This document shows positions 914 to 62,531 of a stretch of DNA of 64,000 nt, one piece after another. The stretch lies in the NCBI GenBank assembly GCA_965248755.1, contig OZ252149.1, forward strand, positions 1,696,001-1,760,000, read 5' to 3'. Both the position numbers and the translations under genes were made by a program. This DNA is from Candidatus Latescibacterota bacterium (lineage in GTDB: Bacteria; Latescibacterota; CBDEFO01). The notes beneath the pieces are model-generated. The model did no database searches, was not told the DNA's origin, and was given only the letters and a program-made list of their open reading frames with translations. Every line of letters begins with the position of its first letter. The first letter of the stretch is position 1.

Positions 914-1393
914 CTAAACTCTTTCCGAGGAGAAGAACATCCTTCCAAAGTATCGAGGAACGTGAAAATTGGGCCCAGCCGTGTCCCCTGGAGACCACAT
1001 GCTGTATTGCTGATTTTCAACTCCGCCGCATCTGTTCAATCCTACTCTCCATTCGTCCCCATCTTCAGGGGGAATATGAGGAGCATCCCTCTTATAGTTG
1101 AACAGAGGGACCGCAAGCTCAATAGTCCAGAAGCGGTCGTCGGGAGATTCATCTTTGGTTGGGCCTTCCACAGAGTGACCTAACAGGACACCCTGGGGAT
1201 TCTACCATAACTGCTCCCCAAAGAGCCAGTCCACGACGATCTGATTCAATCTCGTTCCTACGCAGTTTATCTCAAAAGTATAATAATTCTCCACGTTCCC
1301 GGAATCGGGACTTATAAAGATCTCGACGCAATCGTCCCTATATACAGGGCCATTTCTCTCTGTCGCGTAAGCCGATATATGTCTGTCATAGCA
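914..1393 (-). pseudogene. CBM9-like sugar-binding domain gene, 3' part (split by IS1380 unit; in-frame TAG at 1202-1204)
   Basis: Reads CYDRHISAYATERNGPVYRDDCVEIFISPD...YYTFEINCVG...LW*NPQGV...WTIELAVP...WRVGLNRC...FHVPRYFG. It continues in frame from the 5' part at 3346-3543. Confidence 0.85.
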
Positions 1394-1398
1394 ATAAT

Positions 1399-1719
1399 CC
1401 CGGATGACATCGAGTATCTGTGCTGCAAGTGTCTCGGGACTGACGCCAGCTTATCTTTGATGGGCATAGATCCCGACAATGCCCATGAGATTCCGGCGTT
1501 ATCCAGGCTGGCCAACATCATAAAAGATTATGAAACCCTGCGCCTCTCGAACTATTTTCCAGAATCGGTTAAGGCCAAGCTGAGGGCACCGGGCGAGGAG
1601 TTTACGCTGATGCGGAGTCCACGCGGAAAATACCAGTTCCAGCGCGTTCAGTACGCCAAGCACAAAGTGGAGTGTATGGACATGTGGAGCAACGCCTGGA
1701 AGACCTATAATAGATTCGA
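1399..1719 (+). pseudogene. Passenger fragment of an unrelated gene, truncated at both ends, carried with IS1380
   Basis: Open frame PDDIEYLCCKCLGTD...YNRFD. It begins right after ATAAT (1394-1398) and ends at the IS inverted repeat (1720). Confidence 0.75.
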
Positions 1720-3345
1720 CCGACATTCCCCATATCACATTCATGAGGGATTATATTTCGATACATTCTTGTTTCTGAATTAATATTACCACTTTTACAT
1801 TTTTCAACAAGTACTTTTTTCAATTAAAATAGTATTTTCCTCTGAATTATCACTTTCTTTGTGTTTAAATCCTCCAATTAGAGACACCTCTCCATCGACT
1901 CACAAAAAAATGTGGCAGTTTAAACAGAATAACATCGCAATCGTTCAATCCGGGATAATATTTCGGCAAATAACCTCTTGTCTATCCCAACCTCAGCCAT
2001 TTGAAACGTAATATATCCGCTGTGTCTGACAATCTTCGCTCCGATTTTGATAAATTTCACGAGGAGGCTGCGTAGTGACCAGTGTTTGATTTTCTTCGGA
2101 AGAACAAAACGTCGCAGGAAGTTGCCCAAGTTGTAAGCCAGAACAAACAGCCAGAGCCTCACCTGATTGGAGACGAAACGCTTGCATGAGAGTCGGGTCC
2201 AGTTCAGAGCATACTTGCCCTCCTTAATCCACTGCTCAGCTCTGCCACGGCCATTGTAGAAGTGTACCACGCCTTCTGGCTTGGCGCTCATGTTGGTCAC
2301 GATAAATCCCACTCTTGGGAATAACTCCCCTTGGTGCCATTCAACCTTGGCGACCACTCGCCTCGATTGATCCCAACTGGCCGCTTTATATTGAAATTCA
2401 TATAACGATACAATCGGTTTCCTCGGCGGTCGTCCAACTGGCCGAGTCAGCAGGTATCGTATCTTTTCATAGAGTATCTCATTTGCGGGAAACCGAATGG
2501 CATACAAATAGCCGTTTCCCTCCAGATAATCATAAATCTCAGGCTTTGCGAATGCAGCATCGCCTCGAAAGTATTTCCTATTCTTCTTGCTCTCGTATCT
2601 CTTGACGATCGGTTCCAGAACTTCCTTCCAACGATCAGCACTGTGAACATTACCAGAGCGAAGTAGGACTCCTTCACAATCCCCGAACTGATTGAAGCAG
2701 AACACTGGATGAAAACAGGTACATCCGAAATGACCGTTGTAAGCTGATCCTTCCTGCTGGCCATGTACCGGACTCTCCGAACTGTCCATGTCCAGAATGA
2801 TTCGTTGATGCTGTGTTTTACTCATCGCTTTTTGAACCCACTTGCCATTGATATCTGACAAGTTTCTGAGATTGTCATGCTGAGTCAGTATATCAGTTTC
2901 AAAACGTCCTATCGTGTTGGAGCTGGCAGCTTGCCTGCCTTTGTCCTTCTTTCCGGTAATCGCTCGCATGACGGGATCAACGGATAATCGCTCGGCGTCA
3001 TTTACATCTTCATATCCTGCAAGACGGCTGTATATCGATTGACGCAGGAGAGTAGATATATCATGTTGGATATTACGGCCTGTGCGTTTATCGGTAAAAA
3101 CCGCTGATACCGAATCAAATAATCCCAGTGCGTAATCAAGGTCACGATACGCAAGAAGTCCACCGTTTGATGTCACCTTTGCACCATGAAATTCAAGCTT
3201 TATTCCTCCATCAAAACCTACTTTCATTCTTTCACCCTCTGGATGATCAATATTTATCCGCCATTTATGAGTCTTATTTATTGTAATATAACATGTTCTG
3301 GCGACTTTGACAACCATTTTTCGGGTCTAATATGGCGAATGGGGG
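1720..3345 (-). mobile_element. IS1380-family insertion sequence, copy 1 (1626 bp)
   Basis: Imperfect terminal IRs: CCGACATTCCCCATAT (1720) vs CCCCCATTCGCCATAT (reverse complement, from 3345). Matches 60820-62445 with one visible substitution. Confidence 0.93.
1920..3317 (-). CDS. IS1380-family DDE transposase (likely true start ATG 3227)
   Basis: KLEFHG..TSNGGLL, GYEDVND, LDMDSS, FRGDAAF and YNGRGRAEQWIKEGK motifs. Confidence 0.95.
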   Translation of the reverse strand: MVVKVARTCYITINKTHKWRINIDHPEGERMKVGFDGGIKLEFHGAKVTSNGGLLAYRDLDYALGLFDSVSAVFTDKRTGRNIQHDISTLLRQSIYSRLAGYEDVNDAERLSVDPVMRAITGKKDKGRQAASSNTIGRFETDILTQHDNLRNLSDINGKWVQKAMSKTQHQRIILDMDSSESPVHGQQEGSAYNGHFGCTCFHPVFCFNQFGDCEGVLLRSGNVHSADRWKEVLEPIVKRYESKKNRKYFRGDAAFAKPEIYDYLEGNGYLYAIRFPANEILYEKIRYLLTRPVGRPPRKPIVSLYEFQYKAASWDQSRRVVAKVEWHQGELFPRVGFIVTNMSAKPEGVVHFYNGRGRAEQWIKEGKYALNWTRLSCKRFVSNQVRLWLFVLAYNLGNFLRRFVLPKKIKHWSLRSLLVKFIKIGAKIVRHSGYITFQMAEVGIDKRLFAEILSRIERLRCYSV

Positions 3346-3543
3346 ATAATAACTCACGTATAGATACTCATCGTCCCATAAGAGCTTTGTTACGGTCTGT
3401 TCCTTTTCACCTTGCTTATGCCAGGGAAACTTAAAGTCCCCCACGCTCTTGCAAGCCTTCCAATCCTCTTCATCCAGGACGCCGTCTATTCTTATTGGGG
3501 CGTTCGCTCTTTTTATCACATATTTGGTAAGATCGTTACCCAT
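3346..3543 (-). pseudogene. CBM9-like gene, 5' part (66 codons)
   Basis: PIRIDGVLDEEDWK...TVTKLLWDDEYLYVSYY, then runs into the IS end. Confidence 0.85.
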
Positions 3544-4031: not shown

Positions 4032-4167
4032 AAAAGACCCCTACATCCCCGATAGATTCAATCGAGGACTATTTCAAATCTCGGAGAGCCTGTCTTTTCA
4101 CCTTATAGATGCATAATTTAACACCTACGACTTCCTTATCTTCGGCCCTTTTTCCCTCCATCTTGCT

Positions 4168-5478: not shown

Positions 5479-5611
5479 GGATTCTGCCCTCTCTTCGGTT
5501 AGCCCCCGATAGATTCAATCGTGGGTAGGCAGGGAACACTTCCTATTTTTCCCAAGAAGTTCCTTCGATACTCCGTAGGATACCCTTTCGCGGCCTTTGA
5601 TAGAGCCTCAT

Positions 5612-55762: not shown

Positions 55763-56031
55763 ATTTACCTCACGCATTAGCAGACTGGATGGAATATACA
55801 ACTAATTAAGACAGCATCTGTCACAGTCTCAACAACGCTACGTTATTTACCTGCTAAGTATTTCTACAGGGAATCTGATGGATTAGGTACTTACGTAAAT
55901 TGTAGGGTAATCAGAGGGAAGATACAAAAGAAAAGGGTGGATGTCAATTACTTTGTGGGATAATTATTACTGGTGACTATATAGTGTCCATAGCCAGTCG
56001 AAGGCTAAATTAAGCCATATAACACTATAAT

Positions 56032-57172
56032 CGTCTATTACACTCGCGGCAATTTCTTTTCGCGAGTATCCGAATTCCGCGTGTCTGGCGATACTAATGT
56101 CGCTGATGTAGAAAGCGAACGCGTCCTGTGGGAGGTGTCACAGCCGGCGACGAATCACAACGGAGGTCAGCTCGCCTTCGGGCCGGATGGAATGCTCTAT
56201 GTCGGTCTTGGAGACGGAGGAGGAGGAGGGGACACATTCCGGAACGGTCAGGATCCCACTACCTGGTTGGCGGCGATTCTGCGCATCGACGTTGATGCTC
56301 GCACGGCAGGCCTCGAGTACGGTATCCCGCCTGACAATCCGTTTGTCGGCAACAGTCAAGATTGGCGTGAAGAGATCTGGGCATACGGCCTGCGCAACCC
56401 CTGGCGCTTCAGCTTCGACAGGAAAGGCGGTCAGCTGTGGACGGGAGACGTCGGGCAGAATAGGTGGGAAGAGATCGATCTCATCGAAAAGGGAGCCAAC
56501 TACGGCTGGAATAGGATGGAGGGATTTCACTGCTTCTCTCCTCAAACCAACTGCGACACCGTCGGCCTTGCCCTGCCTTTGTTCGAGTACGATCACAGCG
56601 TGGGAGCCTCCCTCACCGGCGGCTACGTCTACCGCGCCGCCCGTCTCGGCGGGCTATATGGTGTGTACATCTACGGCGATTTCATAACCAAGAAAATCTG
56701 GGGTCTGCGCTACGAAGAGGGTGAGGTGCGCTCCAACAACCTGATCGCCACCTGTCCGTCGAACATCACTAGCTTCGGCGAAGACGAGAGCGGGGAGGTT
56801 TACATCGTGGGATTCGATGGGCCGATCTACCTCTTGGAACTCCTGCCGGGTGAGATGCCGACCGCCGTTCTATCGGTAGAGAGCGAGCTGCCCCAGGCCG
56901 ACGCGCTATACCAGAACTACCCCAATCCGTTCAATCCCTCGACCACGATTTCATTCACGGTGGCAGCGCGCGGTTCGGTCGAACTCAGCGTCTTCGACCT
57001 TCTCGGCCGTCGGGTACGGATACTCACCGAAGGACCAAGATCAGCAGGGCAACACACAGTCGTCTGGGATGGCACCGACGAGAATGAACGAACGGTCGGG
57101 TCCGGCATTTACGTCTACCGGATTCGCATCGCTGACTTCGTGCAGACGCGCAAAATGGTGCTGGTCAAGTAG
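56032..57172 (+). pseudogene. 5'-truncated PQQ-dependent sugar dehydrogenase (sGDH/GSDH family) with FlgD-Ig C-terminal domain
   Basis: Begins mid-protein at VYYTRGNFFSRVSEF; has NHNGGQLAFGPDG, YGLRNPWR and NYPNPFNP. No signal peptide or first blades. Confidence 0.85.
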
Positions 57173-57183
57173 GGGGGACCATC

Positions 57184-59163
57184 ATGACTAAGGCATGGAA
57201 TTTTCTGTCGTATATGATCTCGACTCTTTGCATGGTGGGTATGATTGTCTCTGCAGTGAAGGCCGACGAGATTGGAGAATGGAGGTCGTACGGTTCGGAC
57301 AAAGCCAGTTCCAAATACATCCCGCTCGATCAAATCAAGGTGGACAGTGCGGTGAATCTCCGCATTGCGTGGCGTTGGAGCTCCGTTGACAATGAAATCC
57401 TCCGAGCCAACCCTGAACTATGGACTATGGTAAACGAAGCGACCCCGCTTATGATCGATGGGGTCATTTACACGAGCACCTCGCTAGGTCTGGTAGCCGC
57501 CATTGACGCTGTTACAGGGCGGACGATCTGGGTTTATGATCCGCAAACCTACGTGGACGGATCCCCAGCCAACGTGGGTTTCGTGCATCGCGGGGTCTCC
57601 TACTGGGAGGATGGTGATGATCAGCGAATCATCTACGGCACGGGTGATGCGTATTTGATCGCCCTCAACGCAAAGACGGGGAAGCCAATACCAGAATTTG
57701 GTGAGGATGGCAGAATCGATCTGACCCAGGGTTTGCGCCGGCCGGTCGAAAGGGCGCTCTACGCTGTCACTTCACCGCCTGCTATCTGTCGCGATGTGGT
57801 CGTCGTCGGTTCTACCGTGCTGGATGCCTTTGCAGTCGGGAAAATGCCGCAAAAGGTGATGCCGCCGGGCGATGTGAGAGGATTTGATGCGCGCACCGGC
57901 CAGAAGCGCTGGCTATTCCAGTCTATCCCCCAAGAGGGAGAGTTTGGAAACGAAACGTGGGAGAATGGATCCTGGAAAACTACGGGCAATACGAATGTAT
58001 GGACGATGATGAGCTCTGACGAGGAGTTGGGTTACGTATATCTGCCCTTCAGTACTCCTACCAATGACTTTTATGGCGGGAATCGTCATGGAGATAACCT
58101 CTTTGCCGAAAGCCTGGTATGCCTGAATGCGGAAACCGGCGAGAGGGTCTGGCACTTCCAGATACTACATCACGGAATCTGGGATTACGATCTTCCGGCT
58201 GCCCCGAATCTAATCGACATCACAGTTGATGGCGAAAGAATCAAGGCGGTTGCCCAGGTGACCAAACAGGGGTTCTGTTACGTGTTCGACCGCGTTACAG
58301 GAGAACCCGTCTGGCCCATTGAGGAGCGCCCGGTGCCGCAATCGGACGTACCCGGGGAGCAAACATCGCCCACCCAACCCTTTCCAACCAGGCCGTTGCC
58401 CTTCGAACGGCAGGGGTTGACCCACGACGACCTGATCGACTTCACTCCTGAATTACGTCAGCGGGCTATCAATATCATTGAAAGGTACGAGTATGGGCCT
58501 CTCTTTACGCCTCCCTCGGAAAAGGGTACGATAGCCCTGCCCGGCATAATAGGCGGGTCCAGCTGGGCCGGAGCAGCCGTCGATCCCGAAAGGGGTATTA
58601 TCTATATTCCATCCTATACATATCCGGCAATTGTGACCCTGAGCAAATCAGAAGACTCGGCCTCTGACTATTCCTATACTGGAACTGTAGAATTCGGACC
58701 GGAAGGCCCGCAGGGACTTCCCCTAATTAAACCCCCGTACGGGCGTATTACAGCCATAGATTTGAATACGGGTGAGCATCTTTGGGTACGTCCGGTCGGC
58801 GATGGGCCAAAAGATCATCCCGCACTGCAACACCTGAACCTCCCGCCGCTTGGAAGGGCGTATCGCAGTTTTCCTCTTCTGACGAAATCGCTGCTCTTCG
58901 CCGCCCTGCAGGCAGAATGGAGCGTACGAGGCAATTCACCTCGAGGGAACGCGATTGAAGTTGAATTCGAAAACAGAGAGGCTTTCCTGTGGGCGTTTGA
59001 CCCTGAAGACGGAACCCCGATCGCCAAAACGGCGCTTCCTGGGAATGCGTCAGGGGCTCCGATCACCTATATGGCGGATGGCAGGCAGTTCATCGTCATT
59101 CCGCTAGGAGGAGCCTCTCAGCCAGCAGAACTTATCGCGCTGAGCTTGCCGTTCCCCGATTGA
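57184..59163 (+). CDS. PQQ-dependent glucose/quinate-type dehydrogenase, secreted
   Basis: EATPL, HRGVSYW, GDVRGFDARTG, HHGIWDYD and KPPYGRI. Confidence 0.92.
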   Translation: MTKAWNFLSYMISTLCMVGMIVSAVKADEIGEWRSYGSDKASSKYIPLDQIKVDSAVNLRIAWRWSSVDNEILRANPELWTMVNEATPLMIDGVIYTSTSLGLVAAIDAVTGRTIWVYDPQTYVDGSPANVGFVHRGVSYWEDGDDQRIIYGTGDAYLIALNAKTGKPIPEFGEDGRIDLTQGLRRPVERALYAVTSPPAICRDVVVVGSTVLDAFAVGKMPQKVMPPGDVRGFDARTGQKRWLFQSIPQEGEFGNETWENGSWKTTGNTNVWTMMSSDEELGYVYLPFSTPTNDFYGGNRHGDNLFAESLVCLNAETGERVWHFQILHHGIWDYDLPAAPNLIDITVDGERIKAVAQVTKQGFCYVFDRVTGEPVWPIEERPVPQSDVPGEQTSPTQPFPTRPLPFERQGLTHDDLIDFTPELRQRAINIIERYEYGPLFTPPSEKGTIALPGIIGGSSWAGAAVDPERGIIYIPSYTYPAIVTLSKSEDSASDYSYTGTVEFGPEGPQGLPLIKPPYGRITAIDLNTGEHLWVRPVGDGPKDHPALQHLNLPPLGRAYRSFPLLTKSLLFAALQAEWSVRGNSPRGNAIEVEFENREAFLWAFDPEDGTPIAKTALPGNASGAPITYMADGRQFIVIPLGGASQPAELIALSLPFPD

Positions 59164-59379
59164 ATCTATCGGGGGTCAACCTGACAATCAGCTTCGCGCT
59201 TGCCGTTGATCTTTCTCGTTGCCATTAGTCTGAGTCAGAACAGACACCAGGCAAGAGGGAATCCAGATGTCAGGACAGTTAAGGAAGGAGACGGAGGCGC
59301 CTCTCACCCTCTGTATGCAGGATAGTATTATTGAACTCTCTGATCTTGTCCAGACCATTTTGACCCTATACTTGTAATA

Positions 59380-59470
59380 CCAAGTCGCTCTGGTGACGGG
59401 CGGAAGCTGAGGAATTGGCCGAGCATCTACACTTGCATTAGCCACGGAAAGATCGAAAGCCATATCTGGA
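59380..59470 (+). pseudogene. Tiny SDR N-terminal remnant
   Basis: QVALVTGGS*GIGRAST. Confidence 0.5.
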
Positions 59471-59531
59471 GATTTTTGGTCGAAAGGTGGAAGCTTGAAC
59501 CTACATTAGGTTCCTGGAGATTCCTGGCAGC

Positions 59532-60503
59532 TTAACAGCACCCTCCACCTGGATAGTGATATGTAGAACCTGTCACATTAATCTCCTGTTTATCCAAGGT
59601 TTCAAACCACCTTGCCGTCTTGTCACATACCTGGAAGGGAATATCTCTCATCACTATGTGACCCTTGCCGTCGTCAAAGCACTCATCATCCCCTGTATAT
59701 ATCACGGTCCTCCCCGTAAATACACACGCTCCGTCTGGCGGTATGGGATCGTTGTACGCCGCCAACTCCACTGTCTCCAAGAGAATATCCTCGTCCAGAT
59801 CGTATCTGCGACTGTCCAACATTCTGTAAGGACGCCTCCCTCTTATCTCCAGCGTCCCGAATCCAGTCTGGACAATGCGCTCAATATACTCATCGAACAA
59901 CAGGGCACCCGAAAGACACATAGCCCTTAATCGCTCATCCATCTTAAGGTGATCAGGTATCGGCTTTTGCGACACAGGATCGGATATAATGAGCTTTCCG
60001 CCCATCTTCAAGGCGCGCCTTATCTCCACCAGAGCTGTCATCAGGTCGCTTTCGGTAAATATATTAAATAAACAGTTTTGCGCAGCTATGTCCACAGATC
60101 TGTCCGGTAGGGGCAGACTCAGAGCGTCCCCCTCCATCAGAGTCACAAACGATGGATCGAACCAATCGTTTTCGAGGGCGGCTATGTGGAGGTTCCGCTC
60201 CGCTACCTCCAACATCTCAGGCACACTGTCTACCGCTATGACCGATCCCGGACGCCTCGTAAAATACGCAAACTGTAGCGCTTCCATTCCTCCCCCGACA
60301 CCGACATAGAGAATATCCATATCAGAACTCAAGTCCTGAATATGCACAGTCGTCCCGCACCCGTAGTTCATCTCAATCATCTCTTTGGGAATAGAAAGCC
60401 CCGGAAGCTCATAGCCAGAGCCGGTCGAACAGCAAAGCCCCGGTTGTGGTTCTAACGCCGCATCTTTGTAGAGTTCCCTCGTCGTCTCCAAGTAACTCAT
60501 CAT
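59532..60503 (-). CDS. arsM: Arsenite methyltransferase, arsenosugar-biosynthesis type
   Basis: GLCC, MNYGCG, YVGVGGGME, AQNCLFN, CLSGAL, VCDKTA and terminal GGGCC. Confidence 0.85.
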   Translation of the reverse strand: MMSYLETTRELYKDAALEPQPGLCCSTGSGYELPGLSIPKEMIEMNYGCGTTVHIQDLSSDMDILYVGVGGGMEALQFAYFTRRPGSVIAVDSVPEMLEVAERNLHIAALENDWFDPSFVTLMEGDALSLPLPDRSVDIAAQNCLFNIFTESDLMTALVEIRRALKMGGKLIISDPVSQKPIPDHLKMDERLRAMCLSGALLFDEYIERIVQTGFGTLEIRGRRPYRMLDSRRYDLDEDILLETVELAAYNDPIPPDGACVFTGRTVIYTGDDECFDDGKGHIVMRDIPFQVCDKTARWFETLDKQEINVTGSTYHYPGGGCC

Positions 60504-60553
60504 ATGTCTCCTTTGGGTTTTCTTAACTTAAAAAACCTGCGTTAGACTACTAC

Positions 60554-60808
60554 TAACCCGATTAATTCATAAGCTTGGTGGAGTCATTGCGAGGAGCAAA
60601 GCGGTCCCCGATTGAGTCTACCGGGGAAGCAATCTCAAGGTTTTATAGTGGTCTCCTATGAGAGCCGGAGAGTATTACATCTACCACAGAATCGAGATTT
60701 CTTCGCCTTCGGCTCGCAATGACACCGAAGGCCTTAAACAGCATAACTATAATATAATACAATCCCTTAATTAATACACGTCCTTTTTGTGTGAATTATT
60801 TGGGCTAA
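60554..60808. mobile_element. MITE-like element, copy 2 (with extra 21-bp palindrome)
   Basis: Close copy of 28173-28408 with the same terminal IRs. Confidence 0.75.
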
Positions 60809-60819
60809 AATACATTCAT

Positions 60820-62445
60820 CCGACATTCCCCATATCACATTCATGAGGGATTATATTTCGATACATTCTTGTTTCTGAATTAATATTACCACTTTTACAT
60901 TTTTCAACAAGTACTTTTTTCAATTAAAATAGTATTTTCCTCTGAATTATCACTTTCTTTGTGTTTAAATCCTCCAATTAGAGACACCTCTCCATCGACT
61001 CACAAAAAAATGTGGCAGTTTAAACAGAATAACATCGCAATCGTTCAATCCGGGATAATATTTCGGCAAATAACCTCTTGTCTATCCCAACCTCAGCCAT
61101 TTGAAACGTAATATATCCGCTGTGTCTGACAATCTTCGCTCCGATTTTGATAAATTTCACGAGGAGGCTGCGTAGTGACCAGTGTTTGATTTTCTTCGGA
61201 AGAACAAAACGTCGCAGGAAGTTGCCCAAGTTGTAAGCCAGAACAAACAGCCAGAGCCTCACCTGATTGGAGACGAAACGCTTGCATGAGAGTCGGGTCC
61301 AGTTCAGAGCATACTTGCCCTCCTTAATCCACTGCTCAGCTCTGCCACGGCCATTGTAGAAGTGTACCACGCCTTCTGGCTTGGCGCTCATGTTGGTCAC
61401 GATAAATCCCACTCTTGGGAATAACTCCCCTTGGTGCCATTCAACCTTGGCGACCACTCGCCTCGATTGATCCCAACTGGCCGCTTTATATTGAAATTCA
61501 TATAACGATACAATCGGTTTCCTCGGCGGTCGTCCAACTGGCCGAGTCAGCAGGTATCGTATCTTTTCATAGAGTATCTCATTTGCGGGAAGCCGAATGG
61601 CATACAAATAGCCGTTTCCCTCCAGATAATCATAAATCTCAGGCTTTGCGAATGCAGCATCGCCTCGAAAGTATTTCCTATTCTTCTTGCTCTCGTATCT
61701 CTTGACGATCGGTTCCAGAACTTCCTTCCAACGATCAGCACTGTGAACATTACCAGAGCGAAGTAGGACTCCTTCACAATCCCCGAACTGATTGAAGCAG
61801 AACACTGGATGAAAACAGGTACATCCGAAATGACCGTTGTAAGCTGATCCTTCCTGCTGGCCATGTACCGGACTCTCCGAACTGTCCATGTCCAGAATGA
61901 TTCGTTGATGCTGTGTTTTACTCATCGCTTTTTGAACCCACTTGCCATTGATATCTGACAAGTTTCTGAGATTGTCATGCTGAGTCAGTATATCAGTTTC
62001 AAAACGTCCTATCGTGTTGGAGCTGGCAGCTTGCCTGCCTTTGTCCTTCTTTCCGGTAATCGCTCGCATGACGGGATCAACGGATAATCGCTCGGCGTCA
62101 TTTACATCTTCATATCCTGCAAGACGGCTGTATATCGATTGACGCAGGAGAGTAGATATATCATGTTGGATATTACGGCCTGTGCGTTTATCGGTAAAAA
62201 CCGCTGATACCGAATCAAATAATCCCAGTGCGTAATCAAGGTCACGATACGCAAGAAGTCCACCGTTTGATGTCACCTTTGCACCATGAAATTCAAGCTT
62301 TATTCCTCCATCAAAACCTACTTTCATTCTTTCACCCTCTGGATGATCAATATTTATCCGCCATTTATGAGTCTTATTTATTGTAATATAACATGTTCTG
62401 GCGACTTTGACAACCATTTTTCGGGTCTAATATGGCGAATGGGGG
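60820..62445 (-). mobile_element. IS1380-family insertion sequence, copy 2
   Basis: Near-identical to 1720-3345 (offset 59100). Confidence 0.93.
61020..62417 (-). CDS. IS1380-family transposase
   Basis: Identical to copy 1 except IRLPANE vs IRFPANE. Confidence 0.95.
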   Translation of the reverse strand: MVVKVARTCYITINKTHKWRINIDHPEGERMKVGFDGGIKLEFHGAKVTSNGGLLAYRDLDYALGLFDSVSAVFTDKRTGRNIQHDISTLLRQSIYSRLAGYEDVNDAERLSVDPVMRAITGKKDKGRQAASSNTIGRFETDILTQHDNLRNLSDINGKWVQKAMSKTQHQRIILDMDSSESPVHGQQEGSAYNGHFGCTCFHPVFCFNQFGDCEGVLLRSGNVHSADRWKEVLEPIVKRYESKKNRKYFRGDAAFAKPEIYDYLEGNGYLYAIRLPANEILYEKIRYLLTRPVGRPPRKPIVSLYEFQYKAASWDQSRRVVAKVEWHQGELFPRVGFIVTNMSAKPEGVVHFYNGRGRAEQWIKEGKYALNWTRLSCKRFVSNQVRLWLFVLAYNLGNFLRRFVLPKKIKHWSLRSLLVKFIKIGAKIVRHSGYITFQMAEVGIDKRLFAEILSRIERLRCYSV

Positions 62446-62531
62446 ATAATAATACGTAGATGTGATAAAGTTAAGTAAATATTGGGTCTTATCGTGTATA
62501 TAGTTGTTTAATAGTGCTTTCGGAGTAATGG

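Follow-up and report, generated by a model that had tools for sequence, protein, structure and literature searches.

One-ended capture of adjoining DNA has been described for several insertion sequences (ISs) of the IS1380 family, namely ISEcp1, ISPme1 and IS1247a (PMC9330008, PMC3281130, PMC12116815, PMC12589106, PMC13423793), and the reports on ISPme1 and IS1247a concern Paracoccus, so the behaviour was already documented outside the clinic (PMC9330008, PMC3281130). By this route, IS1380 elements spread clinically important resistance genes. A 2022 review gives the IS1380 pathway as not known and the fate of the donor as not studied for ISEcp1 (PMC9330008). Here we describe an IS1380-family element from a 64,000-nucleotide stretch of DNA (the window) of a Candidatus Latescibacterota bacterium. 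The element lies inside a CBM9-family gene together with a 321-bp piece of another gene (the passenger), IS and passenger being enclosed by a single pair of target repeats (Table 1); such an arrangement is referred to below as a unit. The nearest named element is IS1247, with 55% transposase identity over 431 aa, compared to 25.5% for ISEcp1.

The window unit and its empty site

The window unit is the product of one-ended transposition, of which we have next to no doubt, because its donor was found, its empty site was found and 24 further units of the same kind are present in the genome. An earlier note on this DNA had proposed transposition of the ISEcp1 type: capture through a surrogate end stands, given the donor, the empty site and the further units, while the closest named relative is IS1247 rather than ISEcp1. 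The gene-capturing behaviour that the note likened to ISEcp1 is borne out more widely than it could see, the window unit being one of 25.

The note had the repeat ATAAT enclosing the IS plus 321 bp, and its coordinates were all reproduced (Table 1). It had also claimed that removal of the unit with one ATAAT restores a CBM9-like frame. The two halves of the interrupted gene indeed translate as 66 and 159 codons (...LYVSYY / CYDRH...), giving 225 codons with one TAG, and the gene is continuous at this point in G001, the only congener compared. Both flanks match G001 as one continuous site (776/799 letters identical on the left, 722/755 on the right), and they overlap by exactly 5 bp, corresponding to the target repeat. 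The G001 homologue is an intact 225-aa CBM9 protein (...LYVSYYCYDRH...) with Trp in place of the window TAG, and the rejoined junction, aligned as the note had suggested, has no indel relative to it. In run X12, which comes from a different sample and study, a contig joins position 1393 to 3346 and omits 1,952 bp, with 5 letters fitting both sides. At the TAG (1202-1204), no alternative letter was seen in runs X9 and X10 (which, with X11, come from a single sample that may have yielded the assembly), while X12 carries the Trp codon of G001. The chance of finding a given 5-mer at one fixed position is p ~0.001, and the coincidence recurs at 25 breakpoints.

A collapsed or mis-joined repeat at the IS copies could in principle have attached the wrong flank, and the assembly has an untrimmed circular overlap as well as two recurrent IS variants that do not follow lineages. 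It also counts against the joint that X9 and X10 contigs crossing 1398/1399 hold just 29-30 passenger-side letters, 1-2 letters under the 31-letter threshold. However, a mis-join cannot make a target repeat inside unique DNA, and both G001 and X12 show the empty site exact to the base. Furthermore, passenger depth is ~3x single copy, and the loose contig ends carry three daughter flanks. Misassembly can hence be set aside as an explanation with hardly any risk.

The donor of the 321-bp passenger

The passenger sequence was found at three other places in the genome that holds the window (G000), each adjoining an IS copy. Of these IS copies, the one at G000 921841-920216 acted as donor; it lies 777 kb from the window unit and has kept its direct repeat TCGAA intact. 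It splits the passenger's gene after ...YNRF, as the earlier note had predicted for a donor gene, while G001 reads on uninterrupted (...YNRFERQPVG). The passenger includes the donor's own repeat TCGAA beside the right inverted repeat (IRR). The same donor copy is also the source of units with passengers of 98 and 397 bp. Contigs of X9, X10 and X11 on the donor gene have loose ends exactly at the three breakpoints, continuing into the three daughter sites, and X9 depth along the gene climbs in steps of about 7, 15, 26 and 34.

The donor gene has a weak CBM_11 match on its 3' part. No NCBIfam match was obtained for the gene and no Pfam match for its 5' part, and its Atlas neighbours are without names. 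Its G001 counterpart (locus L024, G001:C8 119609-122935) runs unbroken through the IS site and carries a frameshift further upstream, which shows up in X12 too, as a missing base.

Census of the element in the genome

G000 contains 47 full copies of the element: 17 are plain, with a direct repeat at the IS ends, 25 carry a passenger, and 5 have no matched repeats (834366, 2982012, 1274927, 3959959 and 3782900). The copy at G000:C1 3959959-3961584 (L051), one of the latter, shows an adjacent deletion of ~505 bp relative to G001. A 48th, partial copy lies in the untrimmed circular overlap of the assembly, where the contig end duplicates the contig start over at least 6 kb (G000:C1 4533530-4540735).

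Passengers occur in 18 distinct lengths (58, 98, 186, 274, 321, 397, 612, 966, 1177, 1243, 1428, 2301, 2632, 2780, 4662, 4788, 5520 and 5734 bp). For 24 of the 25 units, the target repeat begins where donor identity ends; in the remaining 612-bp unit the flank of the presumed donor is no longer alike, and the G001 match coordinates served to position the break. In cases where the base that follows in the donor is identical to the start of the repeat, the end was placed by assuming a 5-bp repeat, and for the 397-bp unit a 6-bp repeat would account for every base. The passenger lies on the left side in none of the 42 resolved copies, the left end adjoining the repeat in each. Of these copies, 39 have a repeat of 5 bp, one has 4 bp and two have 6 bp, and T was found at position 2 of the duplication in 33/39 when AT-richness was tested. 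Empty sites with a single repeat were present in G001 for all five units compared (the window unit, the 612-bp unit and three more). An open-frame measure on the rejoined flanks of the 25 units was noisy, with three units giving a longer frame after a 1-2-bp shift. The single repeat expected of an empty site was present in G001 for each of the three, in one case close to a 1-bp difference.

A second unit within the window spans 6.4 kb, its 4,788-bp passenger (56032-60819) having been duplicated from beside donor copy 3291403 (G000 3.29 Mb). It holds whole reading frames, those of a pyrroloquinoline quinone (PQQ) dehydrogenase (57184-59163) and a methyltransferase (59532-60503). Together the units duplicate 36.5 kb of chromosome, whole genes included, and one IS copy is thus enough to shuffle or amplify host genes. 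For four units (274, 966, 1177 and 2632 bp) the donor already carried a passenger of its own, so that passengers are extended round by round. The distribution of the 18 lengths is not uniform (p 0.009) and fits both a log-uniform model, as for looping (p 0.19), and an exponential one, as for scanning (p 0.76).

The 186-bp passenger is present in 8 copies, and its last 7 letters equal the surrogate end of the window unit, ATCCGGG. These eight units may descend serially from one another or reflect independent use of a favoured site, IS variants being unreliable as markers. Tracing lineages by point variants was attempted and abandoned: IS positions 121 and 854 vary recurrently and do not follow the donor-daughter groups. 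At the window variant 2492, contigs of X9, X10 and X11 all give the alternative letter with full depth, and the recurrent single-base variants (2492 in the window, IS position 121) are probably assembly errors and were left out of the analysis. The 186-bp sequence occurs at G000:C1 753519-753704 and in 11 further locations. Its terminal tip is identical at 9/9 letters to the left end that related elements have in G043 and G044, which may be the reason for its reuse. Judging by a motif, it may be a piece of a sigma-54 activator gene.

Two further arrangements were observed. At G000:C1 3746991-3753026, a plain copy of the same element was later inserted in the passenger of the 2,780-bp unit, with a 4-bp repeat. 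At L054 and L055 (G000:C1 2701225-2718159), units with 186-bp and 4,662-bp passengers occupy the same site, CTGAC, within two copies of a different IS that are inverted relative to each other, 7.9 kb apart; this site is empty 52 times, which could reflect a hot spot or later recombination.

Surrogate right ends share the tip alone

The IS has short imperfect inverted repeats at its termini, the left (IRL) reading CCCCCATTCGCCATAT and the right CCGACATTCCCCATAT. The distal tip of the window passenger, CCCGGAT, compares with CCCCCAT in IRL and CCGACAT in IRR. The earlier note had called this likeness loose, and a match of 5/14 to IRR was measured. Counting back from the last letter (-1), the 18 distinct surrogate ends have T at -6 in 18/18; the preceding letter, at -7, is A in 15 ends and T in the other 3 (0.14 expected from background for the pair of positions, p 7e-16). 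Positions -3 to -1 are mostly G/C, with G/C at -2 in 17 and G at -1 in 10. The last 7 letters closely resemble IRR (z 7.3), and from -26 to -8 the likeness is at background (z -0.16). The A-T at -7/-6 is common to both true ends, IRL and IRR, and is therefore not a free pick.

Better IRR look-alikes were passed over. The 321-bp unit and the 397-bp unit both bypassed a 12/14 match at passenger position 247. The 397-bp unit also bypassed one of 11/14 at position 329, which lies within its passenger and 8 bp past the end of the window unit. The ends that these units used match IRR at 3-5 of 14. No constant spacer and no base preference were found in the donor bases past the surrogate ends.

Related IS1380 elements were sampled in six other genomes with 1.5-kb flanks, a unit being scored where a repeat stood at the break with a sibling. 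At least 40 matches each were obtained in G041, G043, G044 and G045 (Dehalococcoidia and Acidobacteriota genomes), and direct repeats were present in 16/20, 1/5, 9/15, 4/15, 3/23 and 0/4 sampled copies of the six genomes, the counts being subsets of at least 40 matches in four of them. All four repeat-bounded units end with A at -7 and T at -6: 312 bp in G042, 754 bp in G044, and 637 and 64 bp in G045.

These joints bear on another explanation, in which the IS inserted alone in the CBM9 gene and ectopic recombination with the donor copy, or gene conversion from it, added the passenger afterwards. Ample homology would be provided by the 47 near-identical copies, and the 5 copies without matched repeats, one with its 505-bp adjacent deletion relative to G001, would fit. 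Conversion nevertheless requires homology at both ends and the distal joint has none; moreover, the 5-bp repeat is restored to the base in 25 units, and the joints share a transposon-end motif (18/18). We consider such later addition very improbable.

The transposase and a proposed mechanism

The element shows the features of IS1380 membership, including a DDE transposase encoded in a single frame that agrees with the family model (NCBIfam NF033539, 385 bits against a cut-off of 180), a length of ~1.65 kb with imperfect repeats, and a 4-5-bp AT-rich duplication. The catalytic residues D146/D148, D223 and E331 are invariant in 37/37 aligned sequences, as is a Y-2-R-3-E-6-K motif (Y324-R327-E331-K338). 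This motif marks the cut-and-paste IS4 family (PMC2266710). A Protein Data Bank (PDB) sequence search gave no solved structure matching the transposase. An AlphaFold model built on the 37-sequence alignment (predicted local distance difference test, pLDDT, 78; predicted template modelling score, pTM, 0.82) matches Tn5 transposase best with both aligners used (Foldseek E 1.6e-8; against 1MM8, Z 20.7 and root-mean-square deviation (rmsd) 4.8 over 329 aligned residues), followed by piggyBac (Z 13.1). The model is more distant from IstA (Z 9.7) and from the copy-out transposase ISCth4 (Z 8.6, rmsd 6.3, 234 aligned). This Tn5-like structural prediction runs counter to the replicative reading in print. 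Hairpin formation accompanies the YREK-type motif and the Tn5 fold.

The unit was most likely moved by the transposase of the element itself, and we propose a chain of events that, with its Tn5-style chemistry included, we favour with modest confidence. An IS copy inserted in the donor gene, creating the repeat TCGAA seen there. Its left end and a site 321 bp past its right end would then have been joined to the CBM9 gene, duplicating 5 bp and leading to the product found in the window. The pattern among surrogate ends, which share the tip and nothing of the inner repeat, suggests that the transposase could bind the left repeat fully while a partner subunit reads just the tip of the second site; with such tip-only reading, the true right end would often be skipped and better look-alikes would not be preferred. 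Judging by fold and motif, double-strand excision may proceed through hairpins as in Tn5. The unit presumably leaves one sister chromosome of the replicated donor, so that the donor could survive on, or be repaired from, the other sister. That 42/47 copies are simple insertions with matched repeats would argue against a cointegrate route within one chromosome.

Several points weigh against this reading. A donor with matched repeats was found for 22/25 units, for which copy-out needs no extra steps, and the census counts surviving copies rather than transposition events. The motif beyond -7/-6 was derived from the same 18 ends that it describes, and in full degenerate form it occurs ~28 times per kb and thus cannot alone determine which site is used. 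Three more pairs in G045 share a right flank without a repeat at the break and were excluded from the count above. With respect to the chemistry, a shared fold does not fix the transposition pathway. Tn5 is not known to transpose without two complete ends, and tip-only use would depart from it in this respect. In addition, two ISEcp1 surrogate ends lack T at -6 (PMC12116815, 10.1101/616961), and the tip rule is therefore not family-wide. ISPme1 seems to transpose replicatively, judging by hybridisation (PMC9330008), and ISEcp1 has been termed 'copy-in' (PMC12589106). Intact donors do not decide the chemistry either way, since Tn5 itself appears replicative in vivo (PMC2723962).

In the alternative of copy-out-paste-in, the left end would attack a loose downstream site and a circle of replicated IS and passenger would insert, the donor never being cut out. 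This accounts at once for a left end that never varies, a right end that is loose and donors that stay intact; it lies closer to what is in print, including the replicative pattern of ISPme1 (PMC9330008), and explains donors and end asymmetry more simply. The predicted fold is, however, far nearer Tn5 and piggyBac than ISCth4 and IstA, and the YREK-type motif is present. Furthermore, the assembly has no IRR-IRL junction, and no constant spacer or donor-base preference follows the surrogate ends. Circles or end-to-end junctions were likewise absent among contig joints, although contigs drop rare forms and this carries little weight. Copy-out is a possible route that we judge rather less than probable.

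Features of the window

The features of both units are collected in Table 1. A possible outward promoter that faces the passenger matches the consensus at 10/12; it is a weak candidate, since 2 such sites are present where 1.1 would be expected. Elsewhere in the window, a 21-nt direct repeat (CCCCGATAGATTCAATCG...) occurs at 4047-4067 and 5504-5524, near gene starts. It is probably a small dispersed repeat, because contigs show many loose ends there.

Table 1 Coordinates of the two one-ended units and associated features in the window
Feature	Position	Strand	Basis or remark
3' part of interrupted CBM9-family gene, nonsense codon TAG at 1202-1204	914..1393	-	Sequence
Target-site duplication ATAAT, distal copy	1394..1398	.	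Single copy at empty site (G001, run X12)
321-bp passenger, internal piece of uncharacterised ~950-codon gene	1399..1719	+	Copied from beside donor IS
Surrogate right end, outward reading ATCCGGG	1399..1405	-	Fits A/T-T at -7/-6
IS1380-family insertion sequence, 1,626 bp	1720..3345	-	Boundaries set by 47 near-identical copies in G000
Native right inverted repeat IRR CCGACATTCCCCATATCACA, skipped in window event	1720..1739	+	Sequence
Possible outward sigma-70-type promoter near IRR	1750..1779	-	Weak: 2 such sites, 1.1 expected
DDE transposase, 435 aa from ATG at 3227 (465 aa from upstream ATG at 3317)	1920..3227	-	Pfam PF13701 E 7.6e-128
Left inverted repeat IRL CCCCCATTCGCCATATTAGA	3326..3345	-	Adjoins target repeat in 42/42 resolved copies
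Target-site duplication ATAAT, IRL side	3346..3350	.	Direct sequence match
5' part (66 codons) of interrupted CBM9-family gene	3346..3543	-	G001 comparison, family match
Second one-ended unit, ATAAT at 56027-56031 and 62446-62450	56027..62450	-	IS 60820-62445, donor comparison

Implications

The capture behaviour of the window unit is already known for the family, and the DNA it moved is a functionless gene fragment. This genome preserves an unusually complete record of the behaviour, and what is added here is the genome-wide census of units with their donors and the position-wise end rule. Our literature search, which took in few subscription journals, found no genome-wide census, position-wise end rule or IS1380 transposase structure, and an end rule may therefore already be published. 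The 25 units with donors are unselected, the end rule held in three other genomes, and donors persist. Tools that set IS boundaries by inverted repeats would miss most such events.

We tentatively suggest, at slightly below even confidence, that in this IS1247-like clade one-ended transposition is the main mode and not a rare error, that a Tn5-fold transposase recognises one full end and reads the second by its tip only, past better repeat matches, and that captured ends can become new boundaries. If so, the 186-bp extension in its 8 copies would be a longer IS variant in formation, already the source of third-generation units.

Comparison with known systems

Several classifications were considered and rejected. 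The element is not an isoform of IS1247 or ISEcp1, given identities of 55% and 25.5% against the >95% isoform rule (PMC3281130). Nor is the unit a composite transposon: there is no second IS at the far end of the cargo, and 1399-1719 is donor-gene DNA up to the repeat. A rolling-circle element of the IS91/ISCR type would have an HUH enzyme and make no duplication (PMC9330008), in contrast to the DDE enzyme and 5-bp duplications found here. Membership of the IS4 family proper does not agree with a 5-bp duplication, compared to about 8-13 bp in that family; the element possibly works like Tn5 and is not filed under IS4.

Tn5/IS50 of the IS4 family (PDB 1MM8, 3ECP) is the best structural match, over nearly the whole chain of the predicted model, and has the YREK-type motif. 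It differs in its sequence (~12% identity), in its 8-9-bp duplication compared to 5 bp here, and in that Tn5 cargo moves between two IS copies rather than with one. ISEcp1 (ISEc9) of Enterobacterales shares the fixed left end, degenerate right end and 5-bp duplication, and gains flanking DNA serially (PMC12116815, PMC12589106). A-T also occupies positions 6-7 of its left repeat. The terminal G is said to matter for ISEcp1, whereas only 10/18 ends are G-final here.

The ISPme1 transposable modules (TMos) of Paracoccus methylutens likewise consist of one IS1380 element with variable 3' DNA and loose ends, in a non-clinical bacterium (PMC9330008). ISPme1 has a proven strong outward promoter, in contrast to the weak consensus match of the present element. 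IS1247/IS1247a of Xanthobacter and Paracoccus is alike in size (1,672 bp) and in its 5-bp repeat (PMC3281130, Table 2), its left end starts alike (CCCACATTTCC in L136), and a single copy mobilises adjoining DNA (PMC3281130). It differs from the present case, in which 47 chromosomal copies place donors and daughters side by side and the window unit carries no selected cargo. Of the features of a one-ended unit, the element shows a fixed left end, a passenger of variable length past the right end, a single IS copy per unit, and a duplication that encloses IS and passenger.

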